Shown in pieces: positions 13,001-32,636 of a DNA stretch of 64,000 bases. Each line of letters opens with the position of its first letter. Within the stretch, counting starts at the first letter, position 1. The position numbers were made by a program, and so were the translations under genes. The stretch is from an uncultured Candidatus Kuenenia sp. (GTDB taxonomy: Bacteria; Planctomycetota; UBA11346): positions 67,288 to 131,287 of the forward strand of contig CAZZJC010000006.1 in assembly GCA_964654285.1 (NCBI GenBank). The letters run 5' to 3'. The notes beneath the pieces are model-generated. The model saw only the letters and a list, made by a program, of their open reading frames with translations, was not told the DNA's origin and ran no database searches.

Positions 13001-13534
13001 CATCGCAAGACGCGAAACGGCGGCCATGCGCGCATAGCCTTCATCATGAAGGCAAGGCATCAGTATGCCACGCGATCCGGCTAGACGTACCGCATCGAGA
13101 ACTAAACCAAAACCATAGGGCAGACCTATAACTGCAGCGTAGTCTGTCACATGCCTGGCGATGCGCCGTAAAAGGCTTGGGCTATTGATCCCGTGTGCCA
13201 AGAAGGCGTCCTCGACCCCTGGAGGGATCGCTCCGACAGGTGCGTGATCCCACTCGCCGCGAATGAACCGGATGTTGGCATTATCAAAAGCCGTGCTGTC
13301 GCGCTGACTGACCAGAAAGCGGCGCACCAGCACCGGGCCATCCAGACTGAGACCGGGATGCAGGACGTTGTTCGACCAGGGATCTTGGAAACGTGGAACG
13401 CAGGTGGTCAGAATCTCCACCCGGCGTCCACGTTGACTCAAGCGATGGGCCAGGGCACGGGCCAGACTCTCGGCCCCTCCCTGGCAATTGGGGCCATACC
13501 ATGGCACGACGATAGCAATGGGTTGCCCGTTCAT
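10052..13534 (-). CDS. Three-module GT4 (GT-B) glycosyltransferase, 1160 aa, WbdA/WxcA-like polymerising mannosyl/rhamnosyltransferase
   Basis: Module 1 (aa 1-~400) IAIVVPWYGPNCQGGAESLARALAHRLSQRGRRVEILTTC; module 2 (~400-770) ...FVGRLAPNKRQDRLL...EHEGFGVPLVEAMAFEVPVVA; module 3 (~775-1160) KVAVVVTRCGREVAGGAEALALAWARLVG...VEVLTTC...LEAWSLGRPTLV. The modules are paralogous to the ORFs at 19293..21608 and 21605..22777. Confidence 0.85.
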   Translation of the reverse strand: MNGQPIAIVVPWYGPNCQGGAESLARALAHRLSQRGRRVEILTTCVPRFQDPWSNNVLHPGLSLDGPVLVRRFLVSQRDSTAFDNANIRFIRGEWDHAPVGAIPPGVEDAFLAHGINSPSLLRRIARHVTDYAAVIGLPYGFGLVLDAVRLAGSRGILMPCLHDEGYARMAAVSRLAMSVPAIAAISTGEASLAIRLLGAGLHGRLHMVGTGIEPETLAIPASPPAATSGLGRFLLCLGRRDPSKGCNVLTDAFLRWRAAGGCGLDLVFAGPGSDGRSYADLPNCVHDLGLVDNGTRNWLLANCLALAVPSRHEAYSRVLMEAWHLGRPVAVDARCNATAEAAAIAGAPMANSDNDWQRIIGELADADAEKLAAWGKVGQATGRELSSWDKVIDRIITLVDSLSRPPGFPLIRRHLHQVLTACRPGDAISSEAIAVQSWFRSWGMDSKLIARYLDPALADRVLPLPSVSLTDEPIIYHHSIGSPATDWAVSYRGPKALLDHNITPPRFFAHDPQTASNLQAGIEALPALAAAFPIRFHDSVFNRDEFARAVHLPPAGDILTLPFQPETWCQPPENALESELLLLPSPRLLFVGRLAPNKRQDRLLAILRRLRANKIPASLILVGHFDAGDDWSRFVLADLTAEDLTGQVRIITKATQAQLAAAYRAADVYVSVSEHEGFGVPLVEAMAFEVPVVALNHAAVGETLGGAGVCLPPDADDTAIATAIAAAMEPADRRRILIGQRKRLRDFLPAVVRPIWLSALQAAFPPKVAVVVTRCGREVAGGAEALALAWARLVGSCLGRNQVEVLTTCARDYMTWENFYQVGDDEVEGVRVRRFKVDIPRNVTAFDACSAELVQTGLENAGPDDADRWMRLQGPVSSSLNDHLRRNGNQYDAVIFVGYLYATTWFGLPLVADRAILAPCAHDEWCMRFGFWDRLFRLPKAFWYLSEWERRHVRMRFHDLSVDGPVVSAAIQPPTNVDSDRFLVRHGLQRGYILYLGRIDPGKGCDLLFDHYLAAQAAGAGLPPLVLIGRAAMQVPDHPDVKALGFVDETSRWDAIAGCGLLINPSPNESLSLVILEAWSLGRPTLVNRRCGVTVDLTQRSGGGRDWADSHEFAPAVRATLDLGTVGQAAAWVRQRHAPEQITALLVSGGLYEATQDHP

Positions 13535-15345
13535 GACCGTCCCCCCGGCTTGATGCTGATCAGGCCGAGATCCTGAGGACCATGGAGTGCGAGGTTAATC
13601 CTTGCCCGCGCATCCGTATCGCCGATGACAGTAGAGAGCGCCGCGCCGTCTGTATGTAAGTGCAATGGGCCGACCACCGTGAACCCGCCTTCGGCGACCA
13701 GTACTTCAAGAAGGGCGCGCGGCACCGGCCGCAAATGGGTTGGATCGAGCCAAAAAGTGTTGGCCCCCACCTGCAGGTTGGATGAATCTGGCGTCTCGAT
13801 CATCAACAGACCGCCCGGGGCCAGAGCGCGGTAGGAGGCCCGAATGAGACGCCAGATTCGATCAATCGGTAGATGCTCGACGACATGGAAGACAGAAACA
13901 ACGGCTAAGTTATCCTCAGGTTGAGACTCCAGCCAAGCGCAACCTTCATTAAGTTCAGCCCGCTGTCCCTTGATTCGGAGCGCTTCGACGAACTCTTTAT
14001 TAAGATCAATGCCGATAGGATCGCAATCTTCGGCAATCAACTCGAGCCATTCTCCACGACCACAACCGATATCAGCAACGGTGCGCAGTCCTGTGCGCGA
14101 CACAGCAGCCACAAGGTGCGGCCTATAGACTGCAACACGGTTGTGTATATCCACCATGGAACCGCGCAAACGCGCCTCGATTGCTGCGTAGACTCGGTCT
14201 AACTGCGCCTGCGTCGCATCAGAGGAGGAGAGGGGGGCCTGGGCGAGTGCGATCCGGTCGACCACAGAGGTCATTGCTGCAAGACGATGTTCGAGAGTCT
14301 GGCTTTGTAGGAGTAGGCCGGCTTCTGCCTCAACCTGATGCGCAACGCCCGCCTCCAAGTCGCCCAATTTTCCCACCTGGATTTGTAACGAGATTTCGAG
14401 AGCCTCCTGGCGTTCACCCATGGCCCGGATCTTGGCCTCGCATGGGGCGATGCGGTGTTGCGCGTCGACCACTTGCGCAAGCGCATGTGTCGTGCGCCGG
14501 GATTCCTGCTCTTGACGCTCGACGATGGTCTGAATATGCGCCTCAGTAGAACGAACGCGCTTGTCCGTGACGTCTGTCCGGGTCTCAACACCGGTCAACC
14601 TCGCGGATTGCGTGGCAAGGGATTGTTCACAGGCTTTCAGACGGGATCCAAGTTCCATTACCGATTCGGAGCCAACGTGGATGGCGTCCTCAATGGCCCC
14701 GATCTGATCGAGAATCGAGAGGATGGCCAAGTGGCGTTCGTGGTTGAGTTGGAGCACCAGATCGCGCAATGCCGTCGCTTTTGATTCCAGATTGGCGTCT
14801 ATTCGCTGAGTCTCGACAAACCGCTGATGGTTGAAATCAAGCATTTGCGCCGACAGCGCCGCGACCGATTGGTGGCGTTCGTGATTCAGAGTCAGCGCCA
14901 AGGAGCGCGTATGGGATAATTCGATCAACATATTGCGCATCTCGAGAACCTGACTCTCGATTCTTTCGCGGGCCTCAATCTCCATCCGTAATCGGCAACC
15001 GAGGGCATCACGATGGCGGTCCAGGAGTGAGAATGGAAGCAAGAGGCGTGCCAATCCAAGCAGTCGGCCGAGAATCGGGATGCGGGAAATGCGTTGACGC
15101 CAACGAAACCGGCTTAACCCCGGGAATGGTGCTGTAGCTGATCTGGACTTTCCTTCCATTGATTCAGCCAAGGCAAGGACAATTTCTAGCTTTGATAAAC
15201 GCCCGTCAGTCAAGGCGGACAGATGTAAGTTCATACCCGACGAATCGGGCCCTCTACCAAGAATCGAATGATATGCGGCAAGCAGGAACTCAGGTCCATC
15301 CAACGCCAGTAGAGCATCCATATCCACCGGATTCGGATAATTCAT
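13531..15345 (-). CDS. WbdD-like chain terminator/ruler candidate: N-terminal DUF4214, central coiled coil, C-terminal class I SAM methyltransferase
   Basis: N-terminal FLLAAYHSILGRGPDSSGMNLHLSALTDG...LALAES resembles DUF4214. About 250 aa follow with heptad-like repeats (LTLNHERHQSV..., LVLQLNHERHLAIL...). The C-terminus has VADIGCGRGEWLELI...VFHVVEHLP...LAPGGLLMIETPD, the methyltransferase motifs. The gene is ATGA-coupled to both neighbours. Confidence 0.7.
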   Translation of the reverse strand: MNYPNPVDMDALLALDGPEFLLAAYHSILGRGPDSSGMNLHLSALTDGRLSKLEIVLALAESMEGKSRSATAPFPGLSRFRWRQRISRIPILGRLLGLARLLLPFSLLDRHRDALGCRLRMEIEARERIESQVLEMRNMLIELSHTRSLALTLNHERHQSVAALSAQMLDFNHQRFVETQRIDANLESKATALRDLVLQLNHERHLAILSILDQIGAIEDAIHVGSESVMELGSRLKACEQSLATQSARLTGVETRTDVTDKRVRSTEAHIQTIVERQEQESRRTTHALAQVVDAQHRIAPCEAKIRAMGERQEALEISLQIQVGKLGDLEAGVAHQVEAEAGLLLQSQTLEHRLAAMTSVVDRIALAQAPLSSSDATQAQLDRVYAAIEARLRGSMVDIHNRVAVYRPHLVAAVSRTGLRTVADIGCGRGEWLELIAEDCDPIGIDLNKEFVEALRIKGQRAELNEGCAWLESQPEDNLAVVSVFHVVEHLPIDRIWRLIRASYRALAPGGLLMIETPDSSNLQVGANTFWLDPTHLRPVPRALLEVLVAEGGFTVVGPLHLHTDGAALSTVIGDTDARARINLALHGPQDLGLISIKPGGRS

Positions 15346-16583
15346 ACCGGCACCAGCGCCTTTTTATCCGTGGCTTCCGACAAGGTGGCTCGTAATCGGG
15401 TGTGACCTATAAACATTGGCCCAATGATGCCTTTCACTGTGAAGCTCGTAAGGTTGTCATGCCAATGGTAGCAGTCCTTAAGATGATGGTCCTGACTGTG
15501 GATGGCTACAGTGAGCGAATATTTTCCCGGGGCAATATCCATGTCCATGGTGAATCGGAAACAATAACGCTTACCGGGAACAACCTCGGGACGATGACCG
15601 AGATGCCAGGAATTGGTACCGAAGACATCCTGGCCGAAACGGTCGGTGATCTTGATCCCGATGGTCGCCTGGGGAATGGGGTGCTCGCAGTCGATCTCGA
15701 TCTCGATGGTGGTCGACTCTCCACTCTGGACCACATCGCCATGCGAGATCGAACCCAGGATGCGGGCGGCGACGATCCGGGCGGCATAGGTCCCGTAGGA
15801 TTGCTCGGCTTGCCTGGCTAAGGTGGAGATCTTCTGCGCCTGGATCCGATCCTCGCTATCTCCCATCTTGGCGAGAAGGAAATTGTAGGCGTTGGTCACC
15901 GGCTCAGGCAGTCCATCTTCGATCACCCGACCGCGATGGAGGAGGATCGCCCGATCGGTCAGGAGTTTGATCGAGTTCATGTCGTGGGAGACGAGGATCA
16001 GACTGCCGCCCTTGGCCTTGAAGGCGCGGATCCGTTCCAGGCATTTGGCGCCGAAGTGGGCGTCGCCCACCGACAGGGCCTCGTCGACGATGAAGCAGAC
16101 CGGTTCACTGTGGATGGCTATGGAGAATCCCAACCGCATCAACATGCCGCTGGAATAGGTCTTGACTGGTTCGTGGATGAAATCGCCGAGTTCGGTGAAG
16201 TCGATGATGGCCTGACGTTTGCTGGCGATTTCTGGTGGCGTCATGCCAAGAATGAGACCGCTGAGATGGATGTTTTCGATCCCGGAGAGTTGATTATTGA
16301 AACCGGCGCCGATCGCGAGCAGTCCGATCCGGCCGGCGCCATCGACGGAGATCCGGCCCTGGTCCGGGAGAAGCATGCCGGCCAGAATCCTGAGCAGGGT
16401 GCTCTTGCCGGCACCATTAGGGCCGATCACGCCGAGAGATTCACCCGGTTGCAAGGTGAAGGAGATGTCGTCCAGTGCCTGGAAATCCTTGTGATAGGGC
16501 CGCCGAAAGAGGATCTCCTTGAGCCGGTCCGCAGGATTGCGATACAGGCGAAACCGCTTGCTGATGTGGTCGACCGAAATCAT
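15342..16583 (-). CDS. wzt: O-antigen/teichoic-acid export ABC transporter ATP-binding protein (Wzt/TagH family) with a C-terminal glycan-binding domain
   Basis: [20 protein letters not shown] is the Walker A; [14 protein letters not shown] is the ABC signature; [11 protein letters not shown] is the Walker B. An extra C-terminal domain of about 160 aa is typical of Wzt. Confidence 0.9.
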
Positions 16584-17347
16584 AGGAAATCCCGGACATC
16601 ACGTTCAAGACGGCGGAAGAGCAGCACTGCCACCAGACTCAGGAGGCATCCGACGAGGAGCATCCCCATCAGGACATGCCAATCAGGGAATTGGTGCAGG
16701 ATGAAGATCCGGTGGTAGCAGTCGATGCCGATCGCGGTCGGGTTGGCCTCGACCACTGGTCGTACCGCCGCCGGCACGATGTCCTTGAGGTAGACGATCG
16801 GAGTGAGCCAGAACCAGAGCTGGAAGACGATGTTGGCAACTTCCTTGAGGTCGGGCAGGAAGACCGTGAAGGTGGCAAGGAGCAGGCCGATGCCGTAGGC
16901 GATGAGTTGCTGCGCGATGAACACCGGGATCAGGGCCACCAGCGGCCAACCAGGAAATTCCCCGTTGGCGAAAGTCAACACCAGGAGGATGCCGGTAGTC
17001 ACCAGGTAGGTGAAGGTCTCGGCCAGGATGATGTAAATTGGCAACAGAGGCAGACTGGTCTGCATCTGCTGGATCATCGGCTTTTTGTCGCTGAAGACGG
17101 TGGCGCATCGCAAGCACGTCATGCTGAAGGCGGTCCAGGGCAGCAGTCCGCTCATCAGGTAGATGCCATAACCCCAGGCGGAACCGTTGCCCGGCAGGCG
17201 GGCGGACATGATCTGGGAAAAGATCACCGTGAAGATGAAGACCATCACCAACGGCTGGATCAGGGCCCAGGTGCCGCCCAGGGCGGAGCCGCTGAACCGG
17301 TCGGTGAGGTCCCGTCGGGCGAGATGGAGGAGCAGGGCCGGCGACAT
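16580..17347 (-). CDS. wzm: ABC-2 type polysaccharide export permease (Wzm)
   Basis: MSPALLLHLARRDLTDRFSGSALGGTWALIQPL... has six TM helices in an ABC-2 permease architecture. Its stop overlaps the wzt start (ATGA). The listed 302-aa ORF has an N-terminal extension, so the start is placed at M48. Confidence 0.85.
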   Translation of the reverse strand: MSPALLLHLARRDLTDRFSGSALGGTWALIQPLVMVFIFTVIFSQIMSARLPGNGSAWGYGIYLMSGLLPWTAFSMTCLRCATVFSDKKPMIQQMQTSLPLLPIYIILAETFTYLVTTGILLVLTFANGEFPGWPLVALIPVFIAQQLIAYGIGLLLATFTVFLPDLKEVANIVFQLWFWLTPIVYLKDIVPAAVRPVVEANPTAIGIDCYHRIFILHQFPDWHVLMGMLLVGCLLSLVAVLLFRRLERDVRDFL

Positions 17348-17418
17348 GGAAGGCGCGGCACCATATAGGAGCCTTGCGCAGTATCCAGGGGGCTTGAGGT
17401 GGCGGCAACGATCCAAGG

Positions 17419-18531
17419 TCATCCCGCAGCACTGCGGGTCCGGGCGAGTTCGAGCATGGCCCACATGACCTGGGCAGAACAGTGCCAACCGCCCGGTTGA
17501 GCAGGCTGTGGTCGATGAATCCCGCCCTGTGCCAGCGCAGCCAAGGCATCAGCGAATCCCGACACCGTCAGGGACACCGGGCGCAGTGCGTCGCTGGCCG
17601 CCTCGCGCAATTCCGGCAAATCTCCCGCAATCACCGGGGTGCCGCAGCGGGCTGCTTCCAGGGCGGGCATGCCGAAACCCTCATACCGGGTAGGAAACAG
17701 CAGGGCTTCTGCCCCGGTCATCAACGCGGGGAGATCAGTCCGCGGAACATAGCCGAGATGGTGGATGGGTGCACCCGATACGCGGGCAGAGCGTGCCAAA
17801 GGATCCGCGCCCCAACCGCTACGCCCGGCGACCGCCAATTTGAGCCTGCCCAGGCGTCCAGCGGTGTGGACCTGTTCCGCAGCGGCAAGAAGCAGTCCAT
17901 AGTTTTTGCGGGGTTCCCTGGTACCGACTGCGAGGGCATAGGGTTTCTCCAAACCGTGCCGACGCAGGACCGCGCTCACCTCTGCCACCGGCCTGGGTGA
18001 GAAACCCGGGTCGGCATCCGGTCGGGCGATACCATCAACAGTATGACCATAGCGGTCCTGGATGCGCTTGGCTGTGCCCGCCGAGATGGCAACTGCGGCA
18101 TCTGCGCGCCGCAAATCACTGGCAAAGAACATCTTGGCGACGATCCGCCCGCCCAGGGTCATGGAATCAGGCGCTTCGAGGTGGACCACATCGTAGAGTG
18201 TGAGCAGTCCGGGGATCCCCTTGGGGCAACGCGGCATGGCCATGCTGCACCCCCAGAAGGCATCGATGCGGTCGCCGCGCAGCATGGCCCCGACTCGTTC
18301 GCGCATCCATACGGTCTGCGGCACGCCTCTGGGCCACCAGGGATCGGTACGCCAGAAGTGTTCGATCCCAGGCAGGTCGATATCCTGCCGACACGGCAGG
18401 TAGATGACCACTTCCAGGGGGCGGATCGCTGCCATCGCCCGCAGCAGGGCCGCGACATAGAGGCCAATTCCTGCGACGGGAGCGCGCACAGCACGGCCAT
18501 CGATGGCGAGGCGGAAGGGAGGGTCTGACAT
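17419..18531 (-). CDS. GT4 family glycosyltransferase (group 1)
   Basis: MSDPPFRLAIDGRAVRAPVAGIGLYV...VGTREPRKNYGLLL...RYEGFGMPALEAARCGTPVIAGD carries the GT4 EX7E region. The start is placed at M99 of the listed ORF because the N-terminal 98 aa look non-proteinaceous. Confidence 0.8.
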   Translation of the reverse strand: MSDPPFRLAIDGRAVRAPVAGIGLYVAALLRAMAAIRPLEVVIYLPCRQDIDLPGIEHFWRTDPWWPRGVPQTVWMRERVGAMLRGDRIDAFWGCSMAMPRCPKGIPGLLTLYDVVHLEAPDSMTLGGRIVAKMFFASDLRRADAAVAISAGTAKRIQDRYGHTVDGIARPDADPGFSPRPVAEVSAVLRRHGLEKPYALAVGTREPRKNYGLLLAAAEQVHTAGRLGRLKLAVAGRSGWGADPLARSARVSGAPIHHLGYVPRTDLPALMTGAEALLFPTRYEGFGMPALEAARCGTPVIAGDLPELREAASDALRPVSLTVSGFADALAALAQGGIHRPQPAQPGGWHCSAQVMWAMLELARTRSAAG

Positions 18532-18603: not shown

Positions 18604-19296
18604 GTGCGATCTCCGGCATGGACAGGCCCAAGCAGTCGGGATCATGGCCAACCCATGACAGGACCCAGCCCCGTCGATGAACTCATGCAGCGGGTCGCCG
18701 CCAGGGCCGCCTGGTACCGCCGGGCGGACGCCCGGGATGGTCTGGCCCTGCCGGAACCATTGCCGGCGCTGAGCCGGCCGGAAGCGCCGCGCGCGGTTCC
18801 GCAGCATCCCCGGGTCGGCCTGCATGAATTGCTCTCGCTACGAGGGGGTGATGTCGTTTCATCAGCCTATGAACGCCTGCTCTGGCGCTGCGCGAGTCCC
18901 GAGGAACTGGCCTTCCGGCTCGAACTGTTCCGCAGCGGCCGCCAAGATGTCTTCACCCTGATCCATGATCTTCGCCACAGTCCCGAGGGCATCCGTTGCG
19001 GGGTGCGGATCACCGGCAAAGGTTGGCGAAGGATCATCTTCGCCGTGCTCCGTCTTCCGATGGGCCGGCGCATGTGGCTTGGTTTGCGGGCCTTATTCGC
19101 CCTGCCCCGCTTGCGGGTCGACATCGGAGCCGAGTTGAGGCGTCAGGATCAACGTGTCGAGCGAATCGAGCACGCCCTGGGCGGCTTCGGACCGAAAGCT
19201 GCCCATGATCCGGAAACCGCTCAGGCTCTGCGGTGCCGGCTCGCGGCCCTTGAGCGTAGGGTCGCGGTCCTTGAACAGACGGTAGACCGTCCGTGA
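18604..19296 (+). CDS. DUF4214-like domain protein with a short C-terminal coiled coil (truncated WbdD-like paralog without a catalytic domain)
   Basis: VVSSAYERLLWRCASPEELAFRLELFRSGRQDVFTLIHDLRHSPEG has a DUF4214-like pattern. The C-terminus LRRQDQRVERIEHAL...LRCRLAALERRVAVLEQTV is a predicted coiled coil. An alternative start is at 18655. The stop overlaps the start of the following GT (ATGA). Confidence 0.5.
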   Translation: MRSPAWTGPSSRDHGQPMTGPSPVDELMQRVAARAAWYRRADARDGLALPEPLPALSRPEAPRAVPQHPRVGLHELLSLRGGDVVSSAYERLLWRCASPEELAFRLELFRSGRQDVFTLIHDLRHSPEGIRCGVRITGKGWRRIIFAVLRLPMGRRMWLGLRALFALPRLRVDIGAELRRQDQRVERIEHALGGFGPKAAHDPETAQALRCRLAALERRVAVLEQTVDRP

Positions 19297-21608
19297 TGAA
19301 TAAACGCATCGGCATCGTCGTCCCCTGGTATGGTGAAGCCCTGCGTGGCGGGGCAGAGACCGTGGCGCGGCAAGTGGCGCTCCGACTTGCCGCACGTGGT
19401 CATACGGTCGAAGTCCTCACCACGTGCTGCCGGTCCTTCCTGGACGACTGGGCGGTGAACCACCTGCCAGAGGGTTCGTCCGCCGATGGTCCGATACGGG
19501 TTAGCCGCTTCCCCGTCGATCCGCGCGATGCGCATGCTTTCAACTCGGCCAATGGATTTCTGCTTGGGCTGCCACCGCATCATTTCTCGCCTGGATTGGC
19601 CATTCCAGATCCGGGGTTCGTACCGCACAACCTCCACAGCGCCGCGCTCGTCCGCCATGTGGTTGACCATGCCGCAGAATACCACCGCGTTCTTTTTACG
19701 CCCTATCTGTACGGACCGATCCTGCGTGGTGCCCCGGCGGTCGCCGAACGGGCGGTTCTGCAACCCTGCCTGCATGACGAATCCTACGCCTACCTGGAAC
19801 CCATCCACGCCATGTTCCAGACAGTGCGTCGGTGCGCCTTCCTGTCCCATGGCGAGGCGGACCTTGCCGAGCGGATCTACGGTCCTGCGGTGATCGATGG
19901 TTCCATCGTGGTCGGATCGGGGATCGAAAGCGAAGAGTTAACCACGTCGGTCGCCGCCGGGGCTGATTCCCCGCTCATCCCCGAAGGGCCGTTCCTGCTC
20001 TACCTTGGTCGGCGCGATGCCACCAAGGGGGCCGACCTGCTGATCGACGGTTGGCGCCGCTACCAGGCTGCCCATCCAGGCAATCCGCTGGCATTGGTCC
20101 TGGCCGGACCAGGCCCGAAATCCTACACCGACCATGCGCTGCGGGTGACAGATCTCGGCCTGGTCAATGCCGCAACCAAGGCGGCTTTGCTGCGGGGTTG
20201 CCTTGCCCTGGTCCACCCCAGCCGCAATGAAAGCTACTCGCGCAGTCTGATGGAAGCCTGGCATTGCGGCCGCCCGGCGGTGGTTCATGCGCATTGCCCC
20301 GCCACCGCCGGGGCCATGGCGCGGGCGGGGGCAGGATGGCTTGCTAGTGAAGATCCGGATGCGTGGGCCCAGGCCATCGAGTGCGTCGCGGTATCGACGC
20401 AGGCCGAACGAGATGCGTTTGGTTCCCGTGGCGTCGCCTATGCGGCCGAGCACGCAGACTGGGAACGCTGTATCGACCGCTACGAGCAGCTCCTTGATCT
20501 TGCACCTACAACGGTGGCGACCATCCCGTTGCGAGCACGCCTGGGTCGGATCGATCAGGTCCTGACCGGATTCGACCTCGGAGATGCTATCTCGGAGGAG
20601 GCGCTCACGATCCAGCGTTGGTTGCGATCCCATGGGTGGCTCTCCGACATCGTTGCCCAGTATATCCAGGGACCGTTGCGCAGCGCCTGTGTGCCATGGC
20701 GAACTGGTCTGGTGAACCCTTCAGCCGGTATCATCTACCATCATTCGATCGGATCTGAGATCGCGACCGACGCAATTGCCCACCCCGGGCCCAAAGCCTT
20801 GATCTACCACAATATCACCCCGCCAAAATTTTTCACGGCGTATAAACCGGAACTCGCCAAGATGCTTCAGGATGGGCTCGACCATCTGCCCAGCGCTTGC
20901 GCCAGTTTCCCGCACCTCTGGGCGGATTCGGCCTTCAATGCCCGGGAATTGGCAGTTGCTGCGGGTCGACCCGTGGAGGTGCTGCCCCTGTCGGTGCCGC
21001 CCGCCAAATGGGCGGTGACGCCCGACCAGGGACTTCTCGCCGCCTTGCGCCGGGATCAGGTGCGCAACGTGCTGTTCGTCGGCCGGGTGGCGCCCAACAA
21101 GTGCCAGCATGATCTGGTGCGGATGTTCTGGCATCTGCTGCGGATGGGGGTCAATGCCAGACTCTGCCTGGTCGGACAGGTCTTCCCTGGGGATCCCTAT
21201 GTGGAGGAGGTCCAATCGCTCGCCGCCAATCTCGGCATCGCGAGCCGCGTCTGGATGCCCAACAAGATCACGGTGAGCGAATTGACCGCGGTCTGGAAGG
21301 TGGCGGATGTCTTCGTCAGCCTGAGTGAGCACGAAGGCTTCGGTGTGCCCCTGGTCGAAGCCATGCTGTTCGGCGTTCCCGTCGTCGCGTTTTCATGCAC
21401 CGCGATTGCCGAAACGCTGGGCGGTGTCGGTGTTCTGATGCCCGACAAGGGCGACCTGGTTGAAACTGCAGCAACCGTCGAGACCATCCTGGAAGATGCC
21501 AATCTGAGTGCGGAAATCGTCGCGCGCCAACGCGTGCGACGGATGGATTTCCTGCCTGCGGCAATAGAAAAAAGATATGAAACCTTGATTGGGGGGGCGT
21601 TTCATTGA
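19293..21608 (+). CDS. Two-module GT4 glycosyltransferase, 771 aa (paralog of modules 1 and 2 of the 1160-aa GT)
   Basis: IGIVVPWYGEALRGGAETVARQVALRLAARGHTVEVLTTC (module 1) and ...NVLFVGRVAPNKCQHDLV...EHEGFGVPLVEAMLFGVPVVAFS (module 2). The sequence is colinear with aa 1-~770 of ORF 10052..13534. Confidence 0.85.
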   Translation: MMNKRIGIVVPWYGEALRGGAETVARQVALRLAARGHTVEVLTTCCRSFLDDWAVNHLPEGSSADGPIRVSRFPVDPRDAHAFNSANGFLLGLPPHHFSPGLAIPDPGFVPHNLHSAALVRHVVDHAAEYHRVLFTPYLYGPILRGAPAVAERAVLQPCLHDESYAYLEPIHAMFQTVRRCAFLSHGEADLAERIYGPAVIDGSIVVGSGIESEELTTSVAAGADSPLIPEGPFLLYLGRRDATKGADLLIDGWRRYQAAHPGNPLALVLAGPGPKSYTDHALRVTDLGLVNAATKAALLRGCLALVHPSRNESYSRSLMEAWHCGRPAVVHAHCPATAGAMARAGAGWLASEDPDAWAQAIECVAVSTQAERDAFGSRGVAYAAEHADWERCIDRYEQLLDLAPTTVATIPLRARLGRIDQVLTGFDLGDAISEEALTIQRWLRSHGWLSDIVAQYIQGPLRSACVPWRTGLVNPSAGIIYHHSIGSEIATDAIAHPGPKALIYHNITPPKFFTAYKPELAKMLQDGLDHLPSACASFPHLWADSAFNARELAVAAGRPVEVLPLSVPPAKWAVTPDQGLLAALRRDQVRNVLFVGRVAPNKCQHDLVRMFWHLLRMGVNARLCLVGQVFPGDPYVEEVQSLAANLGIASRVWMPNKITVSELTAVWKVADVFVSLSEHEGFGVPLVEAMLFGVPVVAFSCTAIAETLGGVGVLMPDKGDLVETAATVETILEDANLSAEIVARQRVRRMDFLPAAIEKRYETLIGGAFH

Positions 21609-22777
21609 TTAAGCCGCGCATCGCGATGGTCGTCCAGCGGTATGGCCTCGAGGTCGCCGGCGGGGCCGAGTCTGTCGCGCGCGGGATCGCCCAGAAGATG
21701 GCTTCGGGTCCTTGGGAGGTTGAAGTCCTGACTACCTGCGCGATTCATTACGGCACCTGGAGGAACCATTATCCTTCAGGAAAGCTGCAAGACGGACCAG
21801 TCCTCGTGCGCCGTTTCCCGGTCGCAAGGGAGCGTCAAGAGTCTGCCTTCACCGCGTGGTGCAACCGGATCGGACACCAACCCGAACACGTCAGCCCTGC
21901 CGAAGCGGAAGCATGGATGCAGGCCCAGGGCCCTGATTGTCCGCAACTCACCGACTGGGTCGCCGAGAACGGCCATTGCTATGCTGGCGTGATGGCGTTC
22001 ACCTATCTCTATGCGACCACGGTGAACGCCTTGCGAGCCGCGCCAAAGGGAAGACGGATCCTGGTCCCCTTTGCCCACGATGAGTGGACTTTGCGTCTGC
22101 CGATCTGGCTTGAGTGGTTCGCGAACGTCGATCGCCTCGTGTACAGCACCGAAGAAGAGGAGAGCCTGCTGACATCCCGTTTTCCCGCATTGCGCGGGCG
22201 TGGGAGCGTGGTTGGTCAAGGTTTCACGCCACCGCCCCTTGGCAATGCCGACCGGTTCCGACAGACATTCGGTATCTACCGGGATTTCCTGCTCTACTGC
22301 GGCAGAATCGATCTGAACAAAGGGGTCGACATCCTGCTCGAACAACACGCGCGCTGGCGCAGGGTCGATGCAACCGCCCCCGATCTGGTGCTGATCGGCC
22401 AGGAAATGATCCAATTGCCCGCGCAACCAGGGGTGCATCGACTCGGGTTCGTCACCGACACCGTACGCGTTGATGCCCTGGCTGCGTGCCGGGCTTTGAT
22501 CAATCCCAGTGCCCTGGAGAGTTTAAGCCTCGTATTGCTCGAAGCCTGGTCCGCCGGTCGGCCGACGCTGTGCAATGCCGCCTGCGCGGTGATGGTCGGT
22601 CAGAGCCGGCGCAGTGGCGGGGGACTCTGGTATCGGGATGACGCCGAACTGCGCGCCGCGTGGGATATGATTAGGCATTCCCCACCGGATGCCGCCTCAG
22701 CCGGGCGTTGGGCCCGCGAGCGCTACGCGTGGCCGGCCATCATCGCCGGCTATGCGGCGTCTCTTCCCACGATGTGA
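21605..22777 (+). CDS. Single-module GT4 glycosyltransferase, 390 aa (paralog of module 3 of the 1160-aa GT)
   Basis: IAMVVQRYGLEVAGGAESVARGIAQKMASGPWEVEVLTTC...LLEAWSAGRPTLCNAACAVM. The start overlaps the stop of the upstream GT (ATGA). Confidence 0.85.
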   Translation: MIKPRIAMVVQRYGLEVAGGAESVARGIAQKMASGPWEVEVLTTCAIHYGTWRNHYPSGKLQDGPVLVRRFPVARERQESAFTAWCNRIGHQPEHVSPAEAEAWMQAQGPDCPQLTDWVAENGHCYAGVMAFTYLYATTVNALRAAPKGRRILVPFAHDEWTLRLPIWLEWFANVDRLVYSTEEEESLLTSRFPALRGRGSVVGQGFTPPPLGNADRFRQTFGIYRDFLLYCGRIDLNKGVDILLEQHARWRRVDATAPDLVLIGQEMIQLPAQPGVHRLGFVTDTVRVDALAACRALINPSALESLSLVLLEAWSAGRPTLCNAACAVMVGQSRRSGGGLWYRDDAELRAAWDMIRHSPPDAASAGRWARERYAWPAIIAGYAASLPTM

Positions 22778-23963: not shown

Positions 23964-25361
23964 ATGAACCGTGCGCAGCAATCGGGGATTCTCTGGTGCG
24001 ATATCGGGGATCTCCTCGACTATTTCGCTCTTTATTCTCGTCCATCTGGAATTCAACGGGTAGTGGTAGAGGTTCTGCGGATGGCGCGACTGCGGTGCCT
24101 GCCCGAAGTGCGTTTGTGCCGGATCACCCCGGGTGGACGGCTGCTGCACCTGGACTGGAGTTGGCTTGATCAGGTGTCCAAACCCCCGACACCGCCGGTA
24201 GTAGCCGCCCCAGGCAAACCTCATCTCATTTCGGTGAAATTGGCCACCCACCTGCGCCAATGTGCGAAAAACGCTGTGCATTTGACATTCGCGTGTTTCC
24301 CGGGCGACAGCGGTGATCGATTCCGTCGATGGATCCGCCCCTTGCGCATTCCGCCAGCCCGACGGAAATGGCATGCGTCACTGGCGGCCGCAGGTGTTCC
24401 CTCGCTGCCGTCCGCTAGCGATCTGGTGGTGACCCTTGGTGCCCCCTGGATCCGACCTGGCTGCGAAAAGGATATGGAGCAGGTCCTGGCGCAAAGTGGG
24501 GCACGTTACGCGGTGCTCGTCTACGACTTGATTCCGCTCACCCATCCGCATCTGTTTCCGGATGAGCCGAACCCGTTCATGCCCTGGTTGGATTGGGCCC
24601 TCAAGCGGGCCTGTCTGGTGCAGACGATATCCCATTATTCTGCCCGGACGATTGCAGCCTACCGGGAAAATCGTGGCTTTCCCCTGGTCCCTACCGAGGT
24701 CATCCGCCTCGGCGATCCCCTGCAGGCATCGACGCGTGCCCCCAATCCGCTGCCCCCTCATATCAGGTTCATCCTCTGCGTTGGCACCATCGAAGCCCGC
24801 AAGAACCATCGCTTGCTGCTGGATACCTGGTTGATCCTGCGGGAGCGATTGGGGGAAAGATGCCCGCATCTGGTCTGGGCCGGACGCAAGGGCTGGTTGG
24901 TGGACGACCTGTTCACCCAACTCCGCGCCGCCCGCTGGCTCGAGGGACGCATCATCCATCTTCCCCAGGCCAGTGACGCCGAGTTGGAAACCCTGTACCG
25001 GGATTCGCTGTTCACTGTCTATCCCAGCCTGGCGGAAGGATGGGGCTTGCCGGTCGCTGAAAGTTTGTCCCGGGGCAAGGTGTGTATTGCCTCCAATAGC
25101 ACGTCGATCCCGGAAATCGCAGGCGACTTGCCTTACTTCATTGATCCCTTCGATCCACGTTCTTTGGCCGAACTAATCTGTCGTCTCCTCGACCAACCAG
25201 CCGAACTTGCTGCCCGGGAAGTCCGTATCCGGGAAACGTGGCGGGCACAACCCTGGTCGGTCTGTGCGGATCAGGTGTTGCGAGGTCTGGAAGAAACATT
25301 GGTCCTGAACGAATCCTGCCGATCACAAAGCACTGGTCCGAGCTGGTTGGGTCAGTCTTGA
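23964..25361 (+). CDS. GT4 family glycosyltransferase
   Basis: ...ILCVGTIEARKNHRLLLDTW...YPSLAEGWGLPVAESLSRGKVCIASNSTSIPEIAGD carries the GT4 EX7E motif region. Confidence 0.8.
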   Translation: MNRAQQSGILWCDIGDLLDYFALYSRPSGIQRVVVEVLRMARLRCLPEVRLCRITPGGRLLHLDWSWLDQVSKPPTPPVVAAPGKPHLISVKLATHLRQCAKNAVHLTFACFPGDSGDRFRRWIRPLRIPPARRKWHASLAAAGVPSLPSASDLVVTLGAPWIRPGCEKDMEQVLAQSGARYAVLVYDLIPLTHPHLFPDEPNPFMPWLDWALKRACLVQTISHYSARTIAAYRENRGFPLVPTEVIRLGDPLQASTRAPNPLPPHIRFILCVGTIEARKNHRLLLDTWLILRERLGERCPHLVWAGRKGWLVDDLFTQLRAARWLEGRIIHLPQASDAELETLYRDSLFTVYPSLAEGWGLPVAESLSRGKVCIASNSTSIPEIAGDLPYFIDPFDPRSLAELICRLLDQPAELAAREVRIRETWRAQPWSVCADQVLRGLEETLVLNESCRSQSTGPSWLGQS

Positions 25362-27127
25362 CCGTAAACGCGACGTATCGGTTGCCAATCCGACCAGTCC
25401 CAGATCCGATCCGGACGGGAATCAACCGAGACTGGGGTGCTATTCCATTCGTGCGGACCAAAGGACCTGACTGCCCGCCAATGCACCACCGCCCCAGCGG
25501 CCACTAACAAGCCGATGAACAGGAGAACGGGTTTTTGCCAGGCTGAATGGCATTTGAGGATCTTGATGATGAAAGGCACGCATAGCAAGGCGATGCTGAC
25601 GTATAGAGGTGCTTGTAAGCGGGGTCCGAAACTCCACCCACCCCACCAGTGTGGAAAGCAGGCAATGAGTATGGTTCCGACCACGACGTGCGCCGTAACT
25701 CCAATCCACAACCAGCGTCGATCCCGGTCGTAGACGATTCCTACTACCGCCCCCGGGATCGCGGCCAACATGACCGGATTGAAAATGAAAAAGCCGCGGT
25801 TGGGACTGAACCACTGGCCGAGGATGGCCTGCGGGAATACGGACGGATCAATGCGATTCCCACCATAATAGGGTGGGAATATCGTGCCGAATGCCGTCCA
25901 GGACCATGTGATAAAAAAAACGAGGACTAGCCCACATCCAAGCGCGAACCCAACCAACGGTGCGATGCGCCAACGATTGCCCAGAATCAGAAAGAGCAGC
26001 GCCACGGGTCCAATTAGCGCACCGTCTGGTCGGCACACGAAGGCAAATCCGACCAGCAGACCGGCCGCCAACGCGAGCAGCGGACCTCTGGCAGCGAGGG
26101 CCGCCCACCACGCAGCGGTCAGGCACGCTAGCATGGTGGAACTCGACCAGATAGAAAGCCCGTGTATACTGAGATGGGACGTAGCGAGTGTGAATACGGA
26201 TGCGCATATCGTTGCCGTCATCAAACCAGTTCCGACCTCCAATAGAAGGCCAAGGAATAGGGTTGCGGTCAAGGCGGTCATCACTCGGGAGGCCCATACG
26301 GCCACCGTTTGATCATCGAACCCCAAGATGTTCTGCACTGCCACGAAAGGGAGCAGCAGGCAGGAAGTTCCTGGTGGGAAGTAGTTGTATGGATTCCCGG
26401 TCGCGCCTAGGCGTATCCCGTAACTTTGCACAGTTACGATCTGCTCCTGCCACGCTGATAGGTCCAACGTCCTCTGGTAGAGGATTGCCTGAGCACCAGG
26501 AACATTCCACATATTATCACCAGTTCCAGCCAAGTTTTGGTGCCCGGTACCCAACCCAACCAGTACCAGGATGACAAGGAAGAAACCTGCCAACATGCGA
26601 AATCGCCCCGACGGGGTCAAAGCCACCAAGGCGATGGAAAGCACCCCCAAGCCGGCCAGCAGCCAACTAACTCCGTTAGCGGTCCCTGATCGGACCGCGA
26701 TGCGAAGTTGGTCAATGACTAACTCGGGTGTAGAAAGCTGGGAAAAAACACGCAATTCTACTTGCGCTGGAACCTTGGGGCCGGTCTGAAATGCGCGTAT
26801 TGCGTGCTTAGCCGATGGTGGGAATACCACCTCCTGAGCACCATCATCGTATCCCGGGGCCATGAGATCTATATGGATTTGTACAGGGGTGCGAGTTGAA
26901 AGCCACACGGTATAGGTAGACGAAGGTAGGGGCTTAATCACCCGCCACGTGAGCGACGGCAACCGGACTGTTCCATTGGCATCGACGGGAATCGACGACT
27001 GCCAAGCAGCTGGACTTTCCACCAACACGGTGTCGCCAATGCCCAGTCGGATGGAAATTCCCCAGGCGAGCAACAATATTCCTATGGCAACACCAAGCAA
27101 CCGGAAGAGAAACCAGCGGTTGATCAT
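25352..27127 (-). CDS. Large polytopic membrane protein (one N-terminal TM helix, ~170-aa periplasmic domain, then ≥10 TM helices); candidate GT-C-type lipid-linked-sugar glycosyltransferase
   Basis: MINRWFLFRLLGVAIGILLLAWG is a signal-anchor. A soluble β-rich segment follows, then a long hydrophobic region. The start overlaps the cysC stop (ATGA). GC is lower than in flanking DNA. No family was recognised from sequence alone. Confidence 0.55.
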   Translation of the reverse strand: MINRWFLFRLLGVAIGILLLAWGISIRLGIGDTVLVESPAAWQSSIPVDANGTVRLPSLTWRVIKPLPSSTYTVWLSTRTPVQIHIDLMAPGYDDGAQEVVFPPSAKHAIRAFQTGPKVPAQVELRVFSQLSTPELVIDQLRIAVRSGTANGVSWLLAGLGVLSIALVALTPSGRFRMLAGFFLVILVLVGLGTGHQNLAGTGDNMWNVPGAQAILYQRTLDLSAWQEQIVTVQSYGIRLGATGNPYNYFPPGTSCLLLPFVAVQNILGFDDQTVAVWASRVMTALTATLFLGLLLEVGTGLMTATICASVFTLATSHLSIHGLSIWSSSTMLACLTAAWWAALAARGPLLALAAGLLVGFAFVCRPDGALIGPVALLFLILGNRWRIAPLVGFALGCGLVLVFFITWSWTAFGTIFPPYYGGNRIDPSVFPQAILGQWFSPNRGFFIFNPVMLAAIPGAVVGIVYDRDRRWLWIGVTAHVVVGTILIACFPHWWGGWSFGPRLQAPLYVSIALLCVPFIIKILKCHSAWQKPVLLFIGLLVAAGAVVHWRAVRSFGPHEWNSTPVSVDSRPDRIWDWSDWQPIRRVYGQD

Positions 27128-27843
27128 TTAATGTTCCCGGGATAATCCATGAATCGGCCAGTGGACAGCGTTCGTGGCATGATATTAGACCTCTCCCTTG
27201 AAGGCCGGTTTGACAAAGTGATCAACTCAAGGTTGATTGATTGCACCAAGTGTTGAACTCTGCTTTCCGAAGTAGTGTCAATGATGGAAAGGTTCCGAGC
27301 CTTACATTCGGTTAATGTCTGGCACATCGTATCCAAACGCAATTCCGGCCGTTCCGGCTCTTCATACGGCGCATCGCAGCCGGTCAGGCCGGTCATCTGG
27401 CCGGCGCGGAAGCGGCGGTAGAGGCCCTTGGGATCGCGTTGTTCGCAGACGGCGAGGGGGGTGGCGACGTGGACTTCGATGAAGCGGCCAGCGGGGGCGG
27501 CAGCGCGGGCTTGGGCACGGCTGGCGGCGTAGGGGCTGATCAGGGCGACGAGGGCGATCAGGCCGGCGTCCGCGAACAGCGCGGCGACCTCGCCGGCGCG
27601 ACGGATGTTCTCCTGCCGATCGAAGGCGGACAGGCCGAGATCGCGGCAGAGGCCCTGGCGCAGCAGGTCGCCGTCGAGGACGTAGCAGGGCCGGCCCTGC
27701 GCCAGCAGGTCCGCCTCGACGGCGCGTGCGAGGGTGGTCTTGCCGCTGCCGCTCAGGCCGGTGAACCAGACGACCAGACCGGGTTGGCGTGGTGACGCGC
27801 GATCAGCGGATCCGCTGAGTGGCGGTTGGGGGAAATCAGGCAT
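27124..27843 (-). CDS. cysC: Adenylyl-sulfate (APS) kinase CysC with an atypical ~45-aa AT-rich C-terminal extension
   Basis: VVWFTGLSGSGKTTLA is the P-loop; YVLDGDLLRQGL and ...APYEEPERPELRLDT are canonical CysC blocks. The ORF continues about 45 codons beyond the usual C-terminus into low-GC DNA. Confidence 0.8.
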   Translation of the reverse strand: MPDFPQPPLSGSADRASPRQPGLVVWFTGLSGSGKTTLARAVEADLLAQGRPCYVLDGDLLRQGLCRDLGLSAFDRQENIRRAGEVAALFADAGLIALVALISPYAASRAQARAAAPAGRFIEVHVATPLAVCEQRDPKGLYRRFRAGQMTGLTGCDAPYEEPERPELRLDTMCQTLTECKARNLSIIDTTSESRVQHLVQSINLELITLSNRPSRERSNIMPRTLSTGRFMDYPGNIK

Positions 27844-27961
27844 GCGCTGAGATGATGTTGCGGTCTTGATGGTCGCAAGCTGTCAGGCGGTGAGATGAAC
27901 GGCGGATTCGGGATCGGTGGCCTGCTTGCGTTGCCTGCGCCTGTGGGAATGACAGCCGCCC

Positions 27962-28525
27962 ATGGCGACGCCCACGGTGACGACTTCCGGTGTGATGCTG
28001 GCTTGGCCCGACGGGTTTGCGGCGGCGTTGCCGCGCAGCGGGTGGGTGGTGGCGCATGCCAAGCCGCGCACCGAGAAGAAACTCGCCGAGGATCTGCTGC
28101 GCCTGGGGATCGCCGGGTGCCTGTTCCTGGAACGCCGCATCAAGCGTTATCCCGGCAAAGGGGTGCAGGAGAGCCAGGTGCCGCTGCTGGGCGGGTACCT
28201 GTTCGTGCACCTGGGCGAGGGCCGGGATCCCGAGCCGGTCTACCGCACCGAACGCGTGGTGCGGCTGATCCGGGTGCCGGATCCGGGCCGGCTGGCGGAT
28301 GATCTGGCGGCCCTGCAGCGGCTGATCGAGGGCGCGCAACGGCCGCTGGTGGTGCGGCCGGAACTGATGCCTGGCCAGGTCGTGACGATCGCCAGCGGCG
28401 TCTTTTCCGGCTGCCGGGGCGTGATCGTGCGGCGCGAAGGGGCGGCCGAGCTGGTGGTGAACATCGAGGCGCTCGGGCATTCGGTGGCGGTGCGGATGGG
28501 GGCCGACCTGGTCGGCACGGAATAG
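27962..28525 (+). CDS. NusG-family paralog (RfaH/UpxY/TaA-like transcription antiterminator)
   Basis: WVVAHAKPRTEKKLAEDLLRLGIAGCLFLERRIKRYPGKG...LLGGYLFVHL is an NGN domain. The C-terminal KOW domain is GQVVTIASGVFSGCRGVIVRREGAAELVVNIEALGHSVAVRM. An alternative start is at 27995. Confidence 0.75.
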   Translation: MATPTVTTSGVMLAWPDGFAAALPRSGWVVAHAKPRTEKKLAEDLLRLGIAGCLFLERRIKRYPGKGVQESQVPLLGGYLFVHLGEGRDPEPVYRTERVVRLIRVPDPGRLADDLAALQRLIEGAQRPLVVRPELMPGQVVTIASGVFSGCRGVIVRREGAAELVVNIEALGHSVAVRMGADLVGTE

Positions 28526-28579
28526 CTCGACGGCGTCCCCGTCCGCCGCCTGCGGCCGGGCCAGCCCGCGGCGTTGCGG

Positions 28580-29614
28580 TCAGCCCGCGGCGTTGCCGTC
28601 AGTCCAGACGCGCAGGCCCTGGCGGGCAAGGTAGAGCGGGATGACGGTGAAGCCGGCCTGGACGAGGTCGCGCAGCAGGGCGCGCTTGGCGTCGGAACGC
28701 GGGCCGCACAGCAGGGTGACGGAACCGCCGTCGCCGCCGGCGCCGTTGACCTTGCAGCCCAGGATGCTGTGGGCGGTGGCGATCGCGATGACCTTCTCGA
28801 AATCGGGGCCGACCAGGGCGGGATGCAGGGCGCGCTGGGCCTCGGTGTTCTCGTTCCAGACCCGGCCCAGTCCGGCCCAGTCGCCGCGCAGCAGGGTGTC
28901 CTTGGCGCGCAGGGCGAGGCTGCGGATACGTTCCAGGCGCGGATCCGCGTGCGCATCGGGGCCGAGGTGGCGGATGACCTCCTGGTGCACGGCCGATGAC
29001 TGGTGCGGCCGGCCGATATAGACCAGCGCCATGCGCCGTTCGAGTTCCCACCACAGGGCATTGGGCAGGTGGAGCGGCGACACCGACGCGTCCGGGAAGC
29101 GGGTCATCTCGATCAGGTTGACGCCGCCGTACGCGGCGCAGAGCTGGTCCTGGATGCCGCTCTGCAGGGAAAGATCCTCGGCCTCGATGCGGTGCGCCAG
29201 GCGGGCGATCTCGTAGGCGGTGAGGGTGCCCCCGGACAGGCGGTCGAGCGCGGCGATGATCGCGACCGATACCGAGGCCGAGGTGCCGGTGGACGCGCCC
29301 GGCGGCACCTCGCAGAAGAGGCTGACATCGATCGAGATGCGCTCCGGGACCTGGAGCCGGCGCAGGGCGCATTCCAGCAGCGGCAGCTTGTCGTAGGCGC
29401 GGTCGAGCTCCTCCATCGAGAAGCGCAGGCCGAAGTTCTCGGCGTGCACCGCGACCCGGGGCTGGTCGGGGCGGCGTTCGCGCGTGGTGATCTGGACTTC
29501 GACGTAGGGATAGACCGCGATGTTGCAGACCCGGCCATGACCGGCGAACCAGGTGTCGGTCCAGCCGCCGACGTCGGCGACGCGGATCGGGGCGACGGCG
29601 GTGATGGTGGTCAT
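28580..29614 (-). CDS. GHMP-family sugar kinase (HddA-like), copy 2 (about 89% aa identity to copy 1)
   Basis: MTTITAVAPIRVADVGGWTDTWF...CEVPPGASTGTSASVSVAIIAAL...KVNGAGGDGGSVTLL. GC is high throughout. It is embedded in the listed 487-aa ORF 28580..30043, whose N-terminal extension is spurious. Confidence 0.8.
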   Translation of the reverse strand: MTTITAVAPIRVADVGGWTDTWFAGHGRVCNIAVYPYVEVQITTRERRPDQPRVAVHAENFGLRFSMEELDRAYDKLPLLECALRRLQVPERISIDVSLFCEVPPGASTGTSASVSVAIIAALDRLSGGTLTAYEIARLAHRIEAEDLSLQSGIQDQLCAAYGGVNLIEMTRFPDASVSPLHLPNALWWELERRMALVYIGRPHQSSAVHQEVIRHLGPDAHADPRLERIRSLALRAKDTLLRGDWAGLGRVWNENTEAQRALHPALVGPDFEKVIAIATAHSILGCKVNGAGGDGGSVTLLCGPRSDAKRALLRDLVQAGFTVIPLYLARQGLRVWTDGNAAG

Positions 29615-32613: not shown

Positions 32614-32636
32614 AGTTTGACTTCCTGAGTCAAACT
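32614..32636. promoter_or_regulatory. Perfect 8-bp inverted repeat (agtttgac-N7-gtcaaact), candidate MarR operator
   Basis: agtttgacttcctgagtcaaact lies about 115 bp upstream of the MarR-family gene that starts at 32751. Confidence 0.4.

Follow-up and report, generated by a model that had tools for sequence, protein, structure and literature searches.

What does a NusG-family protein do when its gene stands alone between polysaccharide-related genes? The question is raised by a 64-kb stretch of DNA from an uncultured Candidatus Kuenenia sp. (contig CAZZJC010000006.1; hereafter the window, from whose first nucleotide all positions are counted), in which an open reading frame at 27962-28525 on the plus strand encodes a NusG-family paralog of 187 amino acids (aa). 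Specialized NusG paralogs (NusG-SPs) are the main known route to full-length transcription of long surface-polysaccharide, toxin and antibiotic operons, which are often horizontally acquired. To our knowledge, mechanistic descriptions exist only for RfaH, UpxY and LoaP, each with its own recruitment signal. Judged from its sequence, the NusG-like protein is a NusG-SP, a known kind of protein, from a previously undescribed clade. By analogy with characterized NusG-SPs, we lean towards the view that it is a specialized elongation or antitermination factor acting on the adjacent polysaccharide operons.

Predicted protein and family assignment

A first-pass annotation had proposed a NusG-family reading frame at 27962-28525, and we confirmed its exact position and its family: the Pfam NusG NGN profile (PF02357) matches residues 28-104 with 26.3 bits, above the gathering cutoff of 22.2, and AlphaFold2 (AF2) predicts an NGN and a KOW fold. 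The frame opens at 27953, just 9 nucleotides (nt) 5' of the ATG, so that the ATG at 27962 is the sole start able to encode the conserved N-terminal residues; the coordinates include the stop codon. The GC fractions at codon positions 1/2/3 (0.77/0.48/0.88) are typical of the genes of this genome (~70% GC). The ratio of nonsynonymous to synonymous substitutions (dN/dS) is 0.38 and 0.49 against two homologues with 72% and 63% amino-acid identity, and the gene is therefore real, functional and under purifying selection. Its parts are the following.

27962..28525, plus strand: coding sequence of the specialized NusG-family paralog, 187 aa
27962..28042, plus strand: clade-specific N-terminal extension, residues 1-27, with a predicted strand at 5-15 (predicted local distance difference test score [pLDDT], 81-95) and conserved W15-P16-x-G and P24 (12-sequence clade alignment, AF2)
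28043..28273, plus strand: NGN domain, residues 28-104, with invariant W28, H32, P35-R36, the strand P74-L-L-G-G-Y-L-F81, and R98
28283..28333, plus strand: long helix linking NGN to KOW, residues 108-124 (AF2)
28346..28498, plus strand: KOW-like C-terminal domain, residues 129-179, predicted as a five-stranded β unit with no α-hairpin (AF2, alignment)

The AF2 model was built on 12 clade sequences and has a pLDDT of 91.1 and a predicted template modeling score (pTM) of 0.85. It places an N-terminal β-strand (5-15) before the α/β NGN domain, followed by the helix (108-124) and the β unit (129-179), the strands of which (129-132, 139-142, 152-158, 161-168 and 173-179) have pLDDT values of 85-91. 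In this unit the clade alignment shows conservation of G138, G146, G150, G153, V165-V-N167 and L171-G172, and the four glycines are kept as far as Escherichia coli NusG and RfaH, as in a KOW domain. The alignments to the UpxY and RfaH hidden Markov models (HMMs) reach residue 177-181, and the domain has weak KOW-type matches to eL6/eS4. An RfaH-style α-to-β autoinhibition is not indicated by the model, in which the β form of the KOW domain comes from a single prediction.

In NusG and RfaH, the strand matching "PLL-GYLF" is the surface that binds RNA polymerase (the β' clamp helices). P74, L75, G78, Y79 and F81 vary little or not at all between the clade and E. coli RfaH and NusG, and the Trp that begins the NGN domain is kept in the alignment with both E. 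coli proteins. Overall identity to these two is only 16-19%, with a phmmer E-value of ~0.2 to RfaH chains, and the AF2 model can be aligned with 8f5g, the LoaP-RNA complex, over 121 residues. Four basic NGN residues (R36, K39, R47 and R98, of which R36 and R98 are invariant) align in part with the ops DNA-contacting positions of RfaH; these residues and the N-terminal extension are the foremost candidates for determining specificity. Pfam and curated-model scans detected no domain or family beyond the NusG type in the protein.

To which NusG family does the protein then belong? By curated thresholds it belongs to none of RfaH, UpxY and LoaP. The best curated model is UpxY (NF033644), which matches residues 28-181 with 57.3 bits (E-value, 1.8e-15) and a cutoff of 100 that is not reached; P0010, another member of the close clade, also stays under it with 48.1 bits. 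The second-best match, RfaH TIGR01955, gives 32.2 bits against a cutoff of 144.5, and RfaH PRK09014 gives 18.1 bits against 124. Neither LoaP NF033641 (cutoff, 125 bits) nor housekeeping NusG TIGR00922 (cutoff, 135.7 bits) matches at an E-value of ≤1. Three distant relatives from Saprospiraceae and Desulfobacteraceae (L005, L009 and L013) pass the UpxY cutoff with 108-122 bits. The earlier label, RfaH/UpxY/TaA-type, thus stands for the specialized kind, with UpxY and then RfaH as the best models, but the thresholds for UpxY, RfaH and LoaP are all missed. The names "RfaH" or "NusG," which two relatives carry in their sources, are likewise not justified by thresholds, which calls for caution among annotators.

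The genomic evidence supports the protein being a specialized paralog of the RfaH/UpxY-like kind and not the housekeeping NusG. The genes secE and rplK, the near-invariant neighborhood of nusG (PMC7593976), were found neither beside the NusG-like gene nor elsewhere in the window nor in any of 22 related loci. There is no second NusG-like open reading frame within the window.

The clade itself is rare. A word-indexed search of 5.8 billion clusters returned 12 relatives with 45-100% identity, and a profile search run exhaustively over 1.84 billion representatives returned 32 at E-values of <1e-30, followed by a continuum of 2,754 at <1e-10. The only named genomes with close clade members (~50% identity) are two Planctomycetota metagenome-assembled genomes, and the literature searched mentions no planctomycete NusG paralog. 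In a bootstrapped neighbor-joining (NJ) tree (88 sequences; only four references, namely E. coli NusG, E. coli RfaH, Thermotoga NusG and LoaP 8f5g), the protein falls into a 35-member clade (bootstrap, 59) apart from the UpxY-passing sequences, from RfaH and from LoaP/NusG. The specialized paralogs except LoaP split from the E. coli and Thermotoga NusG proteins (bootstrap, 75), and deeper nodes are poorly supported. The phylogeny with NusG, RfaH, LoaP and UpxY-type sequences, which had been suggested as a check, hence yields a separate clade, within the limits of the NJ method, a bootstrap of 59 and few references.

All clade members share the extension of ~27 residues before the NGN Trp, with its conserved W-P-x-G and the Pro at position 24. 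The UpxY and RfaH HMMs do not reach into it: position 1 of each aligns to residue 28. According to a regular-expression heuristic, at least 15 residues precede the NGN Trp in 147 of the 162 nearest family representatives. The gene call of one relative, P0002 (L061, 704-1276; called by JGI as a 168-aa "transcriptional antiterminator RfaH"), is N-terminally truncated: the open frame upstream of its called start encodes the conserved extension "VVHAWPEGF."

A different start, "MPIL..EP..FP..LL," occurs in 36 of the same 162 representatives (among P0046-P0161), many of which end with "GVSVEIDD..LEPI." By sequence these proteins look like a coherent, unannotated, N-terminally extended NusG-like subfamily. 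They score 100-125 bits to the clade profile, carry ~25-45 extra residues, among them an aromatic-Pro motif, ahead of the NGN Trp and fall into a broader assemblage that is nominally sister to the NusG-like clade (NJ node bootstrap, 2). They differ from that clade in their N-terminal motif and conserved C terminus, and their identity is 25-35%.

Genomic surroundings in the window

The genes and spacers around the NusG-like gene, and the operons that it might control, are given here.

9189..18531, minus strand: candidate target operon with genes for a GT4 glycosyltransferase, Wzm, Wzt, a methyltransferase, a large GT4 (1160 aa) and a methyltransferase (open reading frames, Pfam)
18655..22777, plus strand: candidate target operon with genes for an unknown 213-aa protein and two GT4/GT1 glycosyltransferases (gene calls, Pfam)
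25352..27127, minus strand: putative membrane glycosyltransferase, 591 aa, overlapping cysC by 4 bp (weak match to the LA_3751/3752 glycosyltransferase family)
27124..27843, minus strand: cysC, adenylyl-sulfate kinase, divergent neighbor (PF01583, 205 bits; NCBIfam apsK, 215 bits, above 138.7)
27844..27961, no strand: divergent intergenic region of 118 bp, shared with the cysC operon and presumed to hold the promoters of both (sequence)
28526..28579, no strand: convergent intergenic region of 54 bp between the NusG-like gene and the GHMP kinase gene, overlapping a 19-bp tandem repeat (sequence)
28580..29614, minus strand: GHMP-family sugar kinase, convergent neighbor, HddA-like at a subthreshold level (PF00288; HddA, 104.6 bits against a cutoff of 600)

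The gene is monocistronic and heads no operon, its upstream neighbor being divergent and its downstream neighbor convergent. The divergence from cysC that had been reported from the letters alone is real, across a spacer of 118 bp. This spacer has no sigma-70 consensus and no terminator, is not unusually structured (folding z = +0.55 and +0.91 against shuffles) and is conserved with L061 only in its final 13 nt. The 54-bp convergent spacer folds no better than shuffles and contains no canonical terminator. Because cysC and the glycosyltransferase gene lie on one side and the duplicated GHMP kinase gene on the other, the gene is bracketed by polysaccharide-related genes. The earlier description of it as embedded in a polysaccharide locus is borne out to this extent, but the gene is monocistronic, heads no operon, and belongs to a clade in which the linkage holds in 5 of 14 contexts.

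The 9.3-kb operon at 9189-18531 on the minus strand contains four 4-bp gene overlaps and is followed by an acyltransferase gene (7869-9059) and then by the DprE2/DprE1/HAD-UbiA set. Of the two minus-strand operons said to exceed 9 kb, the one from wzm to the methyltransferase gene does so, but the operon resembling a decaprenyl-phospho-arabinose (DPA) operon spans ~3.8 kb. The island at ~7800-27850 has 50-65% GC against 68-77% elsewhere, with a minimum of 50% around the acyltransferase gene, which is consistent with its horizontal acquisition.

The GHMP kinase gene has a second copy at 22778-23818 on the minus strand, with 89% protein identity (BLASTP, 306/343) and 82% DNA identity; this second kinase is likewise HddA-like and falls well short of the HddA cutoff too. 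The duplication is limited to the coding sequence and ends exactly at the start codon; a leader common to the two kinase genes was rejected because the duplication stops there. GC at the third codon position (GC3) is 0.72 in the island copy and 0.83 in the copy in high-GC DNA. The two genes may thus stem from a recent duplication or from exchange between the island and the core. A 19-bp tandem direct repeat, CAGCCCGCGGCGTTGC(G/C)GT, occurs twice at 28562-28599 and extends across the stop codon of the convergent GHMP kinase gene.

Several other features of the window are worth recording. The minus-strand set at 3933-7729 encodes a DprE2-like short-chain dehydrogenase/reductase, a DprE1-like FAD oxidase (413 bits, short of the equivalog cutoff of 500) and a UbiA prenyltransferase fused to HAD (PRK08238, 544 bits, above 351), that is, a DPA-type pathway outside Actinomycetota; a small SMR/EamA-like membrane protein is encoded at 3586-3993. 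Upstream of the UbiA operon, the AT-richer region 7565-7868 contains, in the minus-strand sense, TTGACAATCG twice, CCGAGTCTGAAC twice with different spacing and a run of nine G; these repeats may be duplicated promoter or operator elements. The rmlC-like gene for a dTDP-4-dehydrorhamnose 3,5-epimerase (1905-2486, minus strand) has an in-frame stop at 2298-2300 ("...GILRGLHY*VRQPQDK..."), where its 70% identical homologue in L061 has Gln, so that it is either a pseudogene or the product of a sequencing error.

Beside the polysaccharide genes, 29704-32366 on the plus strand encodes the [FeFe]-hydrogenase H-cluster maturases HydE (311 bits, above 254.6) and HydG (450 bits, above 312) by NCBIfam models, with no hydrogenase or hydF gene among their annotated neighbors. 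The 384-bp intergenic region 5' of a MarR gene (32367-32750) has GC-rich inverted or direct repeat-like segments, such as GCGGGGCTTGCGCCCCAGC and CCCGCTGCGCGGGG, that resemble repetitive extragenic palindromic elements. A perfect 65-bp direct repeat (44386-44450 and 44458-44522, 7 bp apart) lies between a gene for a protein resembling peptidyl-prolyl isomerases and an epimerase/dehydratase gene. A tRNA scan found none.

Candidate targets, recruitment signals and rival explanations

Does the company of sugar genes extend beyond the window? The 22 clade loci collected were reduced to 14 distinct contexts, of which the window is one, and a context was called sugar-linked when a nucleotide-sugar or polysaccharide gene lay within two genes of the clade gene. 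Besides the window, this applies to four contexts (5 of 14 in all).

L061 (76% identity): rmlC 149 bp downstream, codirectional
L032: 4,6-dehydratase gene directly downstream, codirectional
L031: CapD/WbpM-type Polysacc_synt_2 gene nearby
L027/L029/L033: complete rmlB-D-C-A cluster, convergent

With an assumed background of 8-15%, this count corresponds to a binomial P of ~0.004-0.05, and the enrichment of sugar genes around clade genes is suggestive, not conclusive. The neighbor of the clade gene in L016 was rejected as a sugar aminotransferase gene, as Pfam matches mainly class I/II aminotransferases, and was left out of the count. More distant relatives in Lewinella head codirectional operons for GT4, dehydratase and ABC exporter proteins and pass or approach the UpxY cutoff, and one in Latescibacterota heads genes for giant FG-GAP/Big_5 surface proteins. 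Other neighbors of clade genes are a divergent gene for an RluD-type pseudouridine synthase (4 loci), a preceding gene for a glycogen-debranching enzyme (3 loci) and, in further loci, gltX, proS and genes for an aminotransferase and an HI0933-like flavoprotein. In L015, L020, L025, L027, L029 and L034, the clade gene lies 45-107 bp 3' of fliQ-fliR, as the final gene of a fliOPQR operon would; L033 ends at the clade gene itself, shares its downstream genes with L027 and probably groups with the fliQ-fliR loci.

That the protein is a dedicated antiterminator of the adjacent operons is, in our opinion, a reasonable hypothesis, and the adjacent Wzm/Wzt locus is probably controlled at the level of elongation. 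Because all characterized bacterial NusG paralogs do so (PMC7819879), the protein would bind the elongation complex in place of NusG. We envisage that, like RfaH, UpxY and LoaP, it joins the transcribing polymerase where a specific signal occurs early in a few long operons, displaces NusG and then counters pausing and termination, which would allow transcription to cover the entire operon. It might act in trans like RfaH or on neighboring operons like LoaP, and since its gene is monocistronic and heads no operon, action in trans would be expected. The likeliest targets would be 9189-18531 (minus strand), 18655-22777 (plus strand) and 25352-27843 (minus strand), possibly together with nucleotide-sugar operons elsewhere. 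The recruitment signal would differ from the ops of E. coli, from JUMPstart and from the UNCG hairpin used by LoaP.

Several observations weigh against this proposal. All function of the protein comes from homology, 9 of the 14 clade contexts have no sugar genes, and the enrichment statistic hangs on the background assumed for it. The commonest clade neighbor is fliQ-fliR, upstream on the same strand, at 7 loci in 4 distinct contexts (one being the L027 group). The GC3 of the NusG-like gene (0.88) is at the level of the core genome, with 0.54-0.81 for island genes; because of this match, the gene may pre-date the island. The signal searches in the window were also negative. No exact match to ops (GGCGGTAGNNTG or GGCGGTAGnnTG) occurs in it, and the 102 matches with up to two mismatches compare with 85 ± 9 expected by chance, which bears out the earlier impression, gained by eye, that there is no convincing ops. 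Rfam, run on the whole window at the gathering threshold and on 7-33 kb at E-values of ≤1, gave no accepted family, JUMPstart included, and one subthreshold small-RNA match. Twelve locus leaders have 5 pairs of common 12-mers (14.6 in shuffles), 11 leader regions contain no UNCG hairpin (stem, ≥4 bp), and 11 leader or intergenic transcripts and the 304-nt UbiA leader fold with z values of -1.5 to +0.9 against shuffles. Intrinsic terminators inside the putative target operons are not above chance. Upstream of 16 clade genes, the best 9-mers occur at 8 loci, with up to 7 in shuffles, and none is conserved. The locus leaders are very short (28-140 bp) and shared by divergent promoters.

A scan of 17-30 kb for sigma-70 promoters and intrinsic terminators likewise stayed at or below chance. 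The leaders at 17348-17418, 18532-18603 and 7565-7868, to which the first-pass annotation had pointed for conserved hairpins or ops-like elements, have no ops-like or shared element and no fold better than shuffles. These leader tests are low powered, given the short leaders, the locus-specific nature of UpxY-type sites and the coverage of 64 kb of genome. In UpxY systems, the 5' leader carries an extended ops-like site together with a pause hairpin, and opsX sequences are locus specific (PMC11685472).

Could the regulon instead lie elsewhere, or be as broad as that of RfaH and include flagellar, cell-surface or other long operons? The island would then have been inserted beside a preexisting core gene, and the adjacency would be coincidental. 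We consider this possible, if doubtful. It would fit a monocistronic gene, as rfaH is described to be (PMC7819879), with the GC3 of core genes beside an island of 50-65% GC. It would also fit the differing contexts of close relatives, with fliQ-fliR, the RluD-type gene, the glycogen-debranching gene and others as neighbors, and the lack of a leader element common within the locus. It does not readily account for the five contexts with adjacent nucleotide-sugar genes, in two of which the clade gene is upstream and codirectional as in UpxY, for the two flanks, each of which carries polysaccharide-related genes (a duplicated sugar kinase gene among them), or for the distant relatives that head polysaccharide operons. 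Variable context is also weak evidence here, as gene order is generally poorly conserved in Planctomycetes genomes.

A more radical departure, to which we give little credence, is that the protein retains the NusG fold and is no longer a processivity factor of RNA polymerase, serving for example as a KOW-based RNA- or ribosome-binding adaptor or as an anti-factor that competes with NusG and does nothing to promote elongation. Its strong divergence from E. coli RfaH and NusG would agree with this, and the extra N-terminal strand in a compact two-domain model might occlude the polymerase-binding face. The model also aligns with the LoaP-RNA complex, and LoaP binds RNA through both domains (PMC12691694). 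However, the hydrophobic strand that contacts polymerase and the Trp at the start of the NGN domain show no variation, the scans picked up nothing beyond NusG-type domains and families, and every characterized bacterial protein with NGN and KOW domains acts on RNA polymerase (PMC7819879). It is very unlikely, finally, that the gene is the organism's only, housekeeping nusG, the situation that the first-pass annotation had named as fatal to its reading. A second nusG was not directly seen in the 64 kb inspected, but the protein has no TIGR00922 match, with 57 bits to UpxY and 32 bits to RfaH, the secE/rplK neighborhood is missing from the window and the 22 related loci, the clade is rare and the tree groups the protein with specialized paralogs. 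We retain a specialized elongation factor of the adjacent polysaccharide operons as the preferred hypothesis.

Significance and comparison with known NusG paralogs

A NusG paralog beside a polysaccharide locus is no great surprise, and divergent NusG paralogs are already known to occur widely. What is unusual in this clade is the conserved N-terminal tail and a linkage to sugar operons that is loose, not strict. A distinct Planctomycetota clade would add a fourth lineage for asking how the specificity of NusG paralogs evolves. One could go further and propose, as an unlikely extension, that the N-terminal strand and aromatic-Pro motif, which recur in another form ("MPIL..EP..FP..LL") in most of the nearest relatives of the clade, mark a novel NusG paralog class of Planctomycetota and allied phyla. 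In that class, loading onto the polymerase would be governed or guided by the tail, a role for which RfaH has its fold-switching KOW domain and UpxY the anti-factor UpxZ, and the regulon would couple surface-polysaccharide and perhaps flagellar operons. Such a tail might mask the clamp-helix binding face until the signal is met, or enlarge the nucleic acid-reading surface of the NGN domain.

How does the protein compare with the characterized systems? TaA of Myxococcus xanthus differs in setting: the NusG-like gene heads no operon, and its context is polysaccharide, not a polyketide (TA) cluster. With LoaP (PDB 8f5g) it shares being encoded beside, and not inside, its candidate target operons. 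LoaP has been described from Bacillota, Actinomycetota and Spirochaetota, and its target leaders carry a UNCG-type RNA hairpin (PMC12691694). Our protein does not match the LoaP model, none of the 11 window leaders has such a hairpin and LoaP groups with NusG in the NJ tree.

The likeness to RfaH is closer. Both are encoded by single-cistron genes whose products act, or would need to act, in trans, and the alignment shows that the NusG-like protein is without the NusG-specific insertion. The RfaH residues K10, R23 and R73, which contact ops, are kept in part: R23 and R73 correspond to R47 and R98, and K10 to the variable K34. Unlike RfaH, the protein stays far under the TIGR01955 cutoff, carries an N-terminal extension, does not conserve the HTT motif and has a C-terminal domain predicted as a β KOW in place of the autoinhibitory α-hairpin; there is no ops or JUMPstart element around the operons of the window.

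UpxY, which serves Bacteroides capsule operons, is the other close counterpart. It differs in that the NusG-like gene is monocistronic and not first in an operon and, with a convergent gene next to it, has no downstream upxZ-like partner. There is one copy in 64 kb against one UpxY per locus, and the conserved extension of ~27 residues lies outside the UpxY model. The UpxY-passing sequences form a separate group in the NJ tree, and the leaders examined contain no extended ops-like element with a pause hairpin, an absence that is not decisive because opsX is locus specific. In its favor, UpxY is the best-scoring curated model, a "PR-EK" motif after the NGN Trp is common to the NusG-like protein and the UpxY-passing sequences, both are associated with polysaccharide genes, and the clade members in L061 and L032 lie directly upstream of a codirectional nucleotide-sugar gene. 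By analogy, the NusG-like protein appears to work most like the RfaH/UpxY-type NusG-SPs.

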